Shown here: one piece after another, positions 23,011 to 56,193 of the stretch
Layout of the letters: each line of letters starts with the position of its first letter
How positions within the stretch are numbered: position 1 is the first letter of the stretch
NCBI GenBank assembly: GCA_963812945.1
Contig: CAWEXD010000003.1
Location: 132,932 to 196,931, forward strand
Source of the DNA: an uncultured Candidatus Rokubacteria bacterium
Lineage (GTDB): Bacteria > Methylomirabilota > Methylomirabilia > Rokubacteriales > DASRDR01
DNA: 64,000 nt
Direction of reading: 5' to 3'
The notes under the pieces: model-generated
Databases searched by the model: none
What the model saw: the letters and a program-made list of their open reading frames with translations, nothing else
What the model was told of the DNA's origin: nothing
Made by a program: the position numbers and the translations under genes

Positions 23011-23727
<717 letters not shown>

Positions 23728-23746
23728 TTACCGACCGACCGACCGG

Positions 23747-48223: not shown

Positions 48224-49201
48224 TCAGCGCGACGACGGCCCGAGAGCGGGGATCGCGGGCGGCGCCAGTTCACCGACCGGGAAGCCCAAGGCCATCCACT
48301 TCGCCACGCCGCCTTCGAGCGGACGGACGCTGGTGATCCCCCGCCGCTTGAGCTGAAGCGCCACCCGGGCGCTCGTGGCTTCGTTGGGTCAGGAGCAGTA
48401 GAGGACCAGCTCGCGATCCCGGGGGATCTCCGCCAGGTGCTCGTCGAGCGCCTCGGCCGCGATCCATCGGCTGCTCGGAATGGCGTACGGGGCGGCGGCC
48501 ACGTCCAGCGCCGTGCGGAGGTCAATGATCGCGACATCCTCTCCCGCCTCGAGCTTACGCTTGAGGTCCTCCGGCGAGATCCGGGCGATACGGAGCCGCC
48601 GGAGGAAGAGCTGACGGCGCAGATACTTCAGCAGGACGTAGCCGACAAGGATCCCCGCCACCAGAAGACCCGCACCGCGTCCCATGGCGCTGACCCGTTG
48701 GACTACGACCTCGATGGCGTCACTGAAGACGTAGCCGATGCCGGCCCAGAGGCCCGCCCACAGCACGATGCCCGCCAGGTCGTAGAGCACGAACCGGAGG
48801 CGCGAGATGCCGAAGATTCCCGCAAGCGGGGGCATGACCGTCGTCAACCCCGGCAGGAACTTCGACACCAGCAGCGCCCGGACGCCGTGGCGGAGAAAGA
48901 GGTTCTCGGTTCGACGCACGCAGACATCGGGCTCCAGCGTCAGGCGACACAGCCCCTGGAGCACGCGCACCCCGCGTCGGCGGCCAATTTCGTGCCAGAC
49001 GAGGTCGACTGGCAGAGCCGTTACCGCGATGGCGCCAATGACGAGCCAGAGACTGACGCGCCCCTGCGCCGCGAGGGCGCCGACGGCCAGAAGAGCCGGT
49101 ACCGCCGGCAGCGGAATGCCCACCTGTTCGGCGACGACCAAGATGGGCAGGAGGACGACGCTGTACCGCTCGAGCCACTCGACGCCGCCCGGGAGGTCCA
49201 T
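48224..49201 (-). CDS. DedA(VTT)-rhodanese fusion, candidate selenoprotein (in-frame TGA at 48389-48391)
   Basis: DedA motifs EQVGIPLP, GRRRG, SKFLPG; rhodanese IIDLR, IP, LVLYCS-TGA-PNEATSARVALQLKRRGITSVRPLEGGVAKW to a second stop at 48224. Confidence 0.85.
48356..48374 (-). promoter_or_regulatory. Putative bacterial SECIS hairpin (copy 1)
   Basis: GAGCGCC-CGGGU-GGCGCUU beginning 14 nt after the UGA. Confidence 0.72.
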
Positions 49202-49306: not shown

Positions 49307-49680
49307 TCACACCGTGCGAAGTTGCGCCGGATCCACGGGCAGCTTGCGGAGCCGCTTTCCCGTTGCGGCGAAGATCGCATTGCACACCGCGGGGGCGACG
49401 GCCGACGTGCCGGGCTCGCCGATCCCGCCGGGCGCCTCCGTGCTCTGGACGAGATACACCTCGACCACCGGGGCCTCGTTGATTCGCAGCGTCCGATAGT
49501 TGTGGAAGTTGCTCTGCTCGACGCGGCCGTTCTTCAGGGTGATCTCGTTGAACAGGGCGGCGGAGATCCCGAAGACGATGCCGCCCTCCATTTGCGCCCG
49601 CACCGTGTCGGGGTTCACGATGATTCCGCAATCCACGGCGCAGACCACGCGCCGGACTCGGACCTCGCCCTCCTTCGAGG
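49307..49680 (-). pseudogene. C-terminal fragment of a xanthine dehydrogenase family molybdopterin subunit (IorB-like)
   Basis: [41 protein letters not shown]; upstream sequence not homologous. Confidence 0.85.
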
Positions 49681-49973
49681 AGCCCGCATGGCGCCCGCGG
49701 TCAGCCGGCGGCCCCCCACGCCAAAACTGGCGCCGGACGGCCGACATGTCCCTGGGTCGCAGGCACGGCCCAACCCTCGCACGGGAACCAGTCAGAACAA
49801 CGGAAGGCCGTGTGGATGACGTGTGGATGAACACTTCCGCCTGCATTGCCCGGTGCAGCCATACTCGGAGGCGTCGGGTTCGATCGGGGGGGGTGCCGTC
49901 GGTGGCATCGGCACGAATCGTGCCGCGTGTCTAGCAGCTGGTCTGTGACGCTCGTCCAACACTCTCAATCGGA

Positions 49974-55230: not shown

Positions 55231-56193
55231 CTACCGCTCGGCGTCAGCAACGGGCACGAGGGAGAGGCGTTCCAGTGGAAGGCCGAGCTCGCGCCAGCCG
55301 TCGAGTCCGCCAGCCAACGGACGGATCCGCGCGATACCTCGACGCTTGAGCAGGAGCGCCACCCGGGCGCTCGTCGCCTCGTTCGGTCAACTGCAGTAGA
55401 GAATCACGTCGCGGTCTCGAGGAAGCGCCACCCGGCCTTGCTCGACGTCATCGACGGCAAGACGGATGGCACCCGGCAGCGCATAGGGTGTGAGTCCCAC
55501 ATCGACGACGCTGCGGAGATCGACGATGAGCGGCTTCTCTCCGGCCGCGAGTTGACCTTGAAGCTCATCGGGCGAGATTCGGGCGATTCGCAGGCTGCGG
55601 AGGAAGCGCTGACGCTGGATCCACTTGACGATGACGTATCCGACGATGATCAGACCGAGCGTCACGGCCACGGCCGCGCCAAGCTGACCGGCCTGGCTGA
55701 CCACCCGCTCGACGGCCTGTCCGGCTGCGTAGCCCAGGACCATCCAGGCGCCGACCCAGAAGAAAGCTCCGAGCGCGGTATAGAGGGAGAATCGGACCAC
55801 CCCGACGCCGACCATGCCAGCGAGCGGCGGTCCCACCGTGCCAAGGCCGGGAATGAACTTGGCGAACAGGAGAAACCGGACCCCGTGACGAAGGAAGACC
55901 TCCTCCGTTCGGCGGACGCACGAATCCGGCTCGAGGGAGACGCGGCAGAGCAAGCCGAGCACCCGGGCGCCGCGCGATCGACCAATGGCATACCAGACGA
56001 GATCGGCCACCAGCGTTGCCAGGACGCCGAGACCCACCGCGCCGGGCAGGCTCAGGCGTCCTGTGGCGGCCAGCCCGCCGGCCGCCATCAGGACCGGTGA
56101 GGCTGGAATGGGCACACCCAGTTGGTCCGCGAGCACGTACAGGAAGAGCAGGATCTCTCCGTGCTCGGCGACGACAGCCAGAACTTCGCTCAC
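55231..56193 (-). CDS. DedA(VTT)-rhodanese fusion, candidate selenoprotein (in-frame TGA at 55387-55389)
   Basis: DQLGVPIP, GRSRG, AKFIPG; IVDLR, LPGA, VILYCS-TGA-PNEATSARVALLLKRRGIARIRPLAGGLDGWRELG to TAG at 55231. Confidence 0.85.
55354..55372 (-). promoter_or_regulatory. Putative bacterial SECIS hairpin (copy 2)
   Basis: GAGCGCC-CGGGU-GGCGCUC beginning 14 nt after the UGA. Confidence 0.72.

Follow-up and report, generated by a model that had tools for sequence, protein, structure and literature searches.

Does a UGA codon inside an otherwise open membrane-protein gene end translation, or is it decoded as an amino acid? The question is raised by a gene at positions 55231-56193 (minus strand) of a 64,000-nucleotide (nt) stretch of contig CAWEXD010000003.1, hereafter the window, from an uncultured Candidatus Rokubacteria bacterium. 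The gene joins a DedA/VTT membrane domain to a rhodanese domain, contains a single in-frame TGA, and has a diverged paralogue in the same window; the two are referred to as copy 2 (55231-56193) and copy 1. We propose, with a probability of about 0.9, that both genes are genuine selenoproteins in which the UGA is read as selenocysteine (Sec, U) by means of a conserved hairpin located immediately downstream.

Two paralogues share an in-frame UGA

Translation of copy 2 with TGA as Sec places U269 ahead of 51 more codons and a TAG stop, which reproduces the frame described in the original prediction. The N-terminus of this protein lines up with the N-termini of full-length homologues that carry cysteine at the Sec position (Cys-type). 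Copy 1 (coding part 48227-49201, minus strand) yields 325 residues with U271, and the UGA of both copies is embedded in the motif LYCS-U-PNEATSARVAL. The two TGA codons are 6,998 nt apart. Overall the copies are 51% identical in protein and 60.7% identical in DNA (984 aligned columns).

Codon-by-codon comparison recovered every synonymous difference that had been claimed around the UGA: TCC/AGT at codon -1, CCC/CCG at +1, GAA/GAG at +3 and GCC/GCG at +4. From +5 to +10 the copies use the same codons, and at +11 copy 1 has CTT where copy 2 has CTC. The 20-nt identity previously pointed out, ACGAGCGCCCGGGTGGCGCT, is indeed present and is the longest run shared by the two genes, the next longest being 9 nt. 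Owing to the difference at codon +11, the hairpin's outermost stem pair is a G-U in copy 1 but a G-C in copy 2. This change had been offered as a sign of a maintained structure; it is present, but says little, as the outer pair is formed in only 34 of 64 family sequences.

The genome encodes a complete selenocysteine system

The genome that contains the window (6.66 Mb, 14 contigs) carries selA, selB, selC and selD, all above curated cut-offs. Three of the components are clustered on contig C7, namely selB (343.9 bits, cut-off 242), selA (571.2 bits, cut-off 268) and tRNA-Sec (75.3 bits). ARAGORN reports a tRNA-SeC with anticodon tca, and this is the sole tRNA with anticodon UCA among the 58 tRNAs of the genome. 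The commonest terminator of long open frames in the genome is TGA. Given this use of TGA and the lack of any other tRNA that reads UGA, a reassigned genetic code, with TGA as a sense codon, was ruled out. The selD gene (C8:1699190-1700107) itself has one in-frame TGA, and selenophosphate synthetase is probably also a selenoprotein.

The UGA is inherited within a multi-phylum family

Matches at E 1e-30 or better were found in 38 of 61 genomes of the same order, and residue 269 is covered by 51 match rows, 50 of which have TGA at that position. A scan of one genome per species gave 80 named loci, from Nitrospirota, Verrucomicrobiota, Methylomirabilota/Rokuibacteriota, Binatota, Acidobacteriota and SAR324. 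Across 111 family genes from at least five phyla, the aligned codon is TGA in 68 and TGC or TGT (Cys) in 43. Row L048, from a genome flagged unpublished (G038), is included in the counts, and no claim depends on it.

A maximum-likelihood tree of the family (quick search, with support from the Shimodaira-Hasegawa-like approximate likelihood ratio test, SH-aLRT, only) separates a 41-row clade, entirely Cys-type and made up of Nitrospirota and Verrucomicrobiota, from a 70-row clade holding all 68 TGA genes together with a nested Cys pair, L130 and L132. The minimum number of TGA/Cys changes on this tree is 2. Copy 1 and copy 2 belong to separate sub-clades, and both sub-clades include orthologues from other genera; hence the duplication is older than those genera, and the TGA came to both copies by descent, not by two separate mutations. 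This revises one argument of the original prediction, which had treated the two TGA codons as independent events: both copies are nested within the 70-row clade, and the TGA predates their duplication.

Constraint on the sequence beyond the UGA was assessed using the ratio of nonsynonymous to synonymous substitution (dN/dS). Over the 40 codons following the TGA, this ratio is 0.0-0.43 in 14 close pairs (0.21 or below in 12 of the 14) at synonymous divergences (dS) of 0.1-0.8, and is similar to or below that of the 120 codons preceding the TGA. The post-TGA sequence is thus constrained and does not evolve neutrally. The frame stays open for 42-54 further codons past the TGA in the rows examined, and the substitution pattern indicates a downstream frame that is translated and under purifying selection.

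Two departures from TGA were seen. The nested pair L130/L132, both from Acidobacteriota, probably represents a Sec-to-Cys reversion; the downstream peptide now reads TAAHLAL and TAARLAL, respectively, with 4 of 6 stem pairs left by hand count. In L154 (G048:C293:15-902), a paralogue in a related genome, the TGA is replaced by TCA (Ser), PNE by SDD, and Cys83 by Ser, such that Cys83 and Sec are lost together in this single case. The TCA of L154 would represent a recent loss of the TGA, judging from this one gene.

A hairpin tracks with the UGA codon

The hairpin is described here by columns numbered from the T of the TGA: the stem joins columns 19-24 (AGCGCC) to columns 30-35 (GGCGCU), with a 5-nt loop between them. 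Both the structure and the synonymous constraint on it follow the TGA codon. Of 67 distinct TGA-type sequences, 66 form every pair of the 6-bp stem, compared to 6 of 42 Cys-type sequences, and the TGA-type consensus AGCGCC-CGKGY-GGCGCU is essentially invariant, synonymous sites included. Among the 67 TGA-type sequences, the stem codons are AGC for Ser+6 (66), GCC for Ala+7 (67) and GCG for Ala+10 (66), whereas the codon for Ala+4, just outside the stem, varies freely (GCG 34, GCC 28, GCT 3). The corresponding positions are mixed in the 42 Cys-type sequences (Ala+7 is GCC in 22, GCG in 18 and GCA in 2; Ala+10 is GCG in 24, GCC in 9 and GCA in 9), and the Arg codon at the loop, CGC in 9 of the 42, is never CGC in TGA-type genes. 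Counted by cell, pairing reaches 99.7% in 64 TGA-type rows versus 73.2% in 41 Cys-type rows, the latter being not above shuffles. Given that dS is 0.1-0.8 even in close relatives, the frozen synonymous sites are not explained by shared ancestry. The only stem-internal change observed is compensated: in L104 the arms read AGU...GCA, converting a C-G pair to U-A.

Copy 2 could form a seventh pair, G-C at 55354/55372, but this pair (columns 18-36) is not conserved in the family, as noted above. Pairs of an extended lower stem occur in 41-58% of rows and are likewise not conserved, with the exception of an invariant A-U at columns 11-41. No alternative recoding element was found within 48 nt.

The hairpin can be compared to the bacterial selenocysteine insertion sequence (SECIS) consensus of Zhang and Gladyshev 2005, as summarised in passages of PMC13188914. 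These give a loop of 3-9 nt on an upper stem of 4-16 bp, a G in the first two loop positions that is mostly followed by G or U, a distance of 16-37 nt from UGA to apical loop, and a minimum free energy of -7.5 kcal/mol or lower. The hairpin agrees with all four rules: it has a 5-nt loop on a 6-bp stem and folds at -9.2 kcal/mol as the isolated 17-nt element (-12.1 kcal/mol in copy 2 and -10.5 kcal/mol in copy 1 with the seventh pair). The loop sequence is C-G-(G/U)-G-(U/C): each of the 64 rows has G at its second position and either G or U at its third. The stem begins 15 nt past the UGA, giving a UGA-to-loop spacing of 21 nt (columns 4-24). As in known bacterial elements, the stem-loop lies in coding sequence just past the UGA, although its stem is at the small end of the allowed range. 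A further difference is that bacterial SECIS elements are generally dissimilar to each other, according to the same part of PMC13188914, while the hairpin described here is near-invariant across phyla.

Weighing Sec decoding against other readings

The suggestion that selection acts on both recoding and RNA structure is supported by the hairpin invariance, the dN/dS of the downstream frame and the Sec machinery. We infer from these comparisons that SelB binds the hairpin and that Sec is inserted at the UGA. Several observations weigh against this. Compared to dinucleotide-preserving shuffles, the 48 nt from each TGA are not more stable (z = 0.08 and 0.35), the native fold being equalled or bettered by 92 and 118 of 200 shuffles, respectively. 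The stability of the hairpin in this G+C-rich DNA is not beyond chance; its invariance among relatives is. Hence, the evidence for the hairpin is comparative and not thermodynamic. A search of the whole window with Rfam at gathering thresholds returned nothing at the hairpin. Covariation within the family is minimal (1 pair, 1 cell) because the stem hardly varies. In addition, the Cys-type genes belong mostly to other phyla (Nitrospirota and Verrucomicrobiota) with different codon usage, and the TGA/Cys contrast is therefore partly confounded by ancestry. Finally, the hairpin is intact in L154 in spite of its TCA codon.

The rival that survives best, albeit a very unlikely one, is that the UGA is decoded without Sec: the hairpin would slow the ribosome, and near-cognate read-through would insert Trp, Cys or Arg. 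The inserted residue cannot be told from sequence alone, and a short hairpin that is no more stable than shuffled sequence would suit such a role. However, a complete Sec system, otherwise a costly one, is retained in the genome; the codon lines up with a Cys in a CxC motif, as is typical of Sec/Cys pairs; and the loop adheres without exception to the G-(G/U) rule of SelB-dependent SECIS elements.

A slightly less probable reading again takes the hairpin to be a by-product of the conserved SARVAL peptide and codon bias, the recoding element being elsewhere or nonexistent. It draws on the facts that the peptide whose codons form the stem is strongly conserved, that G+C-rich genomes favour the codons GCC, GCG and CGG, and that the Ser-type relative retains the hairpin. 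Six Cys-type genes provide a direct comparison, as they encode the same SARVAL peptide; their codons are varied, and full pairing occurs in only 2 of the 6. Furthermore, the freely varying Ala codon lies just three codons upstream in the very same TGA-type genes, and, the pairs of the lower stem being poorly conserved, no substitute element was seen within 48 nt.

Lower still in our estimation is a true stop, with the gene encoding a 268-residue DedA protein bearing a truncated rhodanese domain and the downstream conservation having another cause. Database content appears to favour this at first sight: among the 120 best-listed database proteins, 55 carry the VTT domain only and, wherever the source gives a name, are called DedA membrane proteins, and the four VTT-only proteins that were examined all end in ...LYCS. 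Such truncations are, however, what a gene caller produces from a TGA, and the open downstream frame, with its low dN/dS, completes the rhodanese fold (the Pfam match extends to residue 302). That both copies are pseudogenes with nonsense mutations, as might be entertained because a third copy in the genome is readable only with three frame changes, is already refuted by the comparative data, the TGA being kept in 68 genes of several phyla with purifying selection on either side.

Sec decoding is thus the reading we adopt, and the features of both genes are collected in Table 1. According to the mechanism we propose, UGA269 (UGA271 in copy 1) would be decoded as Sec during translation, with the minimal SECIS inside the coding sequence, a 6-bp G+C-rich stem with a 5-nt loop, recruiting SelB-GTP-Sec-tRNA(Sec) to the ribosome at the UGA.

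Table 1 Features of the two DedA/VTT-rhodanese genes in the window.
Feature	Position	Strand	Remarks
Copy 2, predicted DedA/VTT-rhodanese selenoprotein gene	55231..56193	minus	GTG start 56193; TAG stop 55231-55233; 320 residues
Predicted Sec codon UGA (U269), copy 2	55387..55389	minus	Aligned with TGC/TGT or TGA in family genes
Candidate SECIS core hairpin, copy 2	55355..55371	minus	AGCGCC-CGGGU-GGCGCU; 6-bp stem, 5-nt loop
Rhodanese domain, copy 2 (residues 207-302, with C267-S-U269)	55288..55575	minus	Pfam match spans the UGA
DedA/VTT membrane domain, copy 2 (residues 29-155)	55729..56109	minus	Pfam PF09335
Cys pair C83...C92 (LCRVSLEPDSC), within the DedA domain, copy 2	55918..55947	minus	Invariant across the fused family
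Copy 1, predicted paralogous DedA/VTT-rhodanese selenoprotein gene	48224..49201	minus	ATG start 49201; TGA stop 48224-48226
Predicted Sec codon UGA (U271), copy 1	48389..48391	minus	
Candidate SECIS core hairpin, copy 1	48357..48373	minus	17 nt same as copy 2; outer seventh pair G-U

Protein architecture and a possible function

Both domains are recognised above the Pfam gathering cut-offs: VTT_dom/PF09335 scores 45.7 bits in copy 2 and 43.0 in copy 1 (cut-off 33.9), while PF00581 Rhodanese scores 32.3 and 40.5 bits, respectively (cut-off 22.2). Alignment to PDB 3tp9 places the Cys of its Y-C-R-T-G-G-R-S loop, which we take to be the catalytic Cys of rhodaneses, opposite C267. U269 lies two residues past C267, and the active-site loop is two residues longer than usual in the same alignment. 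In homologues, U is aligned with the second Cys of a CxC, the Cys-type motif being CxCPNE. A second pair, Cys83 and Cys92 (LCRxSLEPDxC), is invariant in 66 of 66 aligned fused proteins and is missing from three non-fused DedA paralogues in the same genome. The last transmembrane helix is followed by an Arg/Lys-rich segment, KWIQRQRFLRSLRIAR, and then by the rhodanese domain, which should consequently face the cytoplasm by the positive-inside rule. The AlphaFold model has a mean predicted local distance difference test (pLDDT) score of 78.2, and a Foldseek search of the model against the PDB returned rhodanese domains only, including that of the membrane-anchored YgaP.

With Sec beside the rhodanese catalytic Cys and the rhodanese domain tethered to a DedA membrane domain, the protein suggests that membrane transport is linked to sulfur or selenium handling. 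The pair C267-S-U269 could constitute a redox-active sulfur/selenium-transfer centre, forming a selenenylsulfide or carrying a persulfide or selenopersulfide. Its substrate might be a chalcogen-containing compound that the membrane domain handles, with the family-specific Cys83/Cys92 loop perhaps serving as a relay. This specific version of the function is a tentative one that we consider more likely wrong than right in its details. Two results count against it: pLDDT drops to 57-66 around the Cys83/Cys92 loop, and an all-against-all BLAST of flanking frames at the 111 loci revealed no generally conserved neighbours. The most frequent neighbour clusters occur at 15, 13 and 12 of the 111 loci, with the 15-locus frame being nitroreductase-like by eye. 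Within the window, Pfam searches of ten neighbours gave assorted oxidoreductases and no evident operon.

Taken more broadly, it is conceivable, though on balance doubtful, that these are the first recognised selenoproteins of the DedA/VTT superfamily, with a SECIS that is unusually invariant across phyla. The Cys-Sec centre of a cytoplasmic rhodanese domain and the family-specific Cys pair of the membrane domain would then jointly couple membrane transport of a sulfur, selenium or related oxyanion species to chalcogen-transfer chemistry. As part of this same reading, the family may be widespread in soil bacteria and multi-copy in some, including Rokubacteria-like Methylomirabilota, Acidobacteriota, Binatota and SAR324.

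Relation to known systems

The DedA fusion is a new architecture of a known selenoprotein kind, the rhodanese CxU. In NCBIfam, the rhodanese part of either copy matches NF041203 (rhodanese_LYCAU, form 3, CxU) best. Like this family, both copies place Sec two residues past the catalytic Cys within LYC[A/S]U, here LYCSU. At 66.7 bits for copy 2 and 80.0 bits for copy 1, with best genomic scores of 62.4 and 75.7, the matches nevertheless fall short of the cut-off of 115, and NF041203 is a stand-alone domain of 126 positions, whereas the domain here forms the C-terminal third of a membrane protein of 320 or 325 residues. In the 61 related genomes no match to NF041203 was found at E 1e-25; control genomes were also without a match, and this search covers the strict family only. 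Form 3 CxU, i.e. NF041203, is catalogued as a predicted selenoprotein in the relevant part of PMC13188914. Rhodanese selenoproteins have long been known, as a Sargasso Sea table in PMC1088965 illustrates, and a passage of PMC1976440 describes a rhodanese-related sulfurtransferase family that includes a UxU variant.

The closest relatives are the Cys-type DedA-rhodanese fusions. These contain the same two domains in 313-324 residues, are 51-56% identical, and share the invariant Cys83/Cys92 and the CxCPNE motif. They differ in having TGC or TGT at the Sec position and no conserved hairpin, and are found mainly in Nitrospirota and Verrucomicrobiota, annotated as 'sulfurtransferase' or 'membrane protein DedA.../rhodanese-related sulfurtransferase'. 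E. coli YgaP also has a rhodanese domain tethered to the inner membrane, and its solved domain matches in both sequence and fold. In YgaP the rhodanese domain comes first and the membrane anchor, a short one, is C-terminal; the protein contains neither a DedA domain nor Sec.

For the membrane part, the NCBIfam matches to UptA and DedA are weak and below cut-off, the best being UptA (NF052604; 64.0 bits in copy 2 and 28.6 in copy 1, cut-off 250). The VTT/DedA domain is shared with the undecaprenyl-phosphate transporter UptA and a selenite-linked DedA protein, both of which are without a rhodanese domain. With respect to the latter, a passage of PMC11422209 states that DedA mutants of Ralstonia/Cupriavidus metallidurans implicate DedA in selenite uptake, and this is the one link of the proposed function to selenium.

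No description of a DedA-fused selenoprotein was found in the titles and abstracts of the papers listed, although a prior listing elsewhere is possible. The main text of PMC13188914 contains none of the terms DedA, SNARE and VTT, and PMC9312934 likewise uses neither DedA nor SNARE in its main text. According to part of PMC13188914 (its ref. 66), a groundwater-genome survey includes a Methylomirabilota genome with 63 predicted selenoprotein genes, and this survey may list the DedA-rhodanese family.

Annotation and transcripts

Public gene calls stop at the UGA, thereby losing the last 51 residues with Sec and the end of the rhodanese fold. In line with this, all 49 database matches ranked above the first full-length homologue (among the 120 best listed) have the DedA domain only. 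Surveys of DedA proteins or selenoproteomes in soil bacteria of the Methylomirabilota and Acidobacteriota would miss or misread these proteins. The family also provides a natural contrast for a minimal SECIS, with 68 TGA-type and 43 Cys-type genes, one nested Cys reversion and one recent TGA-to-TCA change.

Three soil or rhizosphere metatranscriptome runs contain contigs that are 88-99% like parts of the copy 2 gene, two of which (X15 record 6 and X17 record 19) extend across the TGA and cover at least 31 nt to each side of it. Many contigs from the RNA libraries match only about 55356-55398, a stretch of ~43 nt comprising the UGA and hairpin core, and are dissimilar to either side of it. In X16, for example, summed depth has a peak of 131 at 55356-55398, compared to about 4-12 elsewhere in the gene, which fits many different family members with a common nucleotide core. 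As the libraries can contain DNA and the contigs come from relatives, these matches are at most a weak hint of transcription, and no meaning attaches to stretches of the gene that lack coverage.

Other rhodanese-type UGA genes and minor features

The genome appears to be rich in rhodanese-type selenoproteins. A third DedA-rhodanese copy is located on the same contig outside the window (C3:462829-463770), with the motif LYCT-U-PSEASSARVAL and three frame switches; either the gene is decaying into a pseudogene or the assembly contains indel errors there. In the rhodanese gene at C8:1356028-1356336 the predicted Sec occupies the canonical catalytic position (LY-U-A-C-P, hence UxC and not CxU), and a hydrophobic N-terminal segment resembling a signal peptide precedes the rhodanese domain. 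Two further rhodanese genes, at C4:142071-142289 and C8:2954168-2954392, have an in-frame TGA in a C-x4-U arrangement (YCHDTQ-U and YCWDSA-U, respectively), followed in both by a strong hairpin, GAGCCGCGUGGCGGCUC.

A small non-fused rhodanese CxU gene (FYCA-U) was also observed in a related genome (L057:2683-2850, genome G034), on the same strand as the family gene and 378 nt downstream of the Sec codon of the latter. Its hairpin, GCCGCC-GGUCA-GGCGGC, is in the same register from the UGA as that of the fused genes, with two pairs changed on both sides.

Within the window, the frame directly upstream of copy 1 (49307-49846, minus strand) matches only positions 214-283 of the 283 of MoCoBD_2. 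It looks like the remnant of a truncated oxidoreductase subunit, retaining the last 70 positions of this molybdopterin cofactor-binding domain. The sole Rfam match in the window is a PyrR binding site at 23632-23729 (minus strand), with 55.3 bits against a gathering score of 54.

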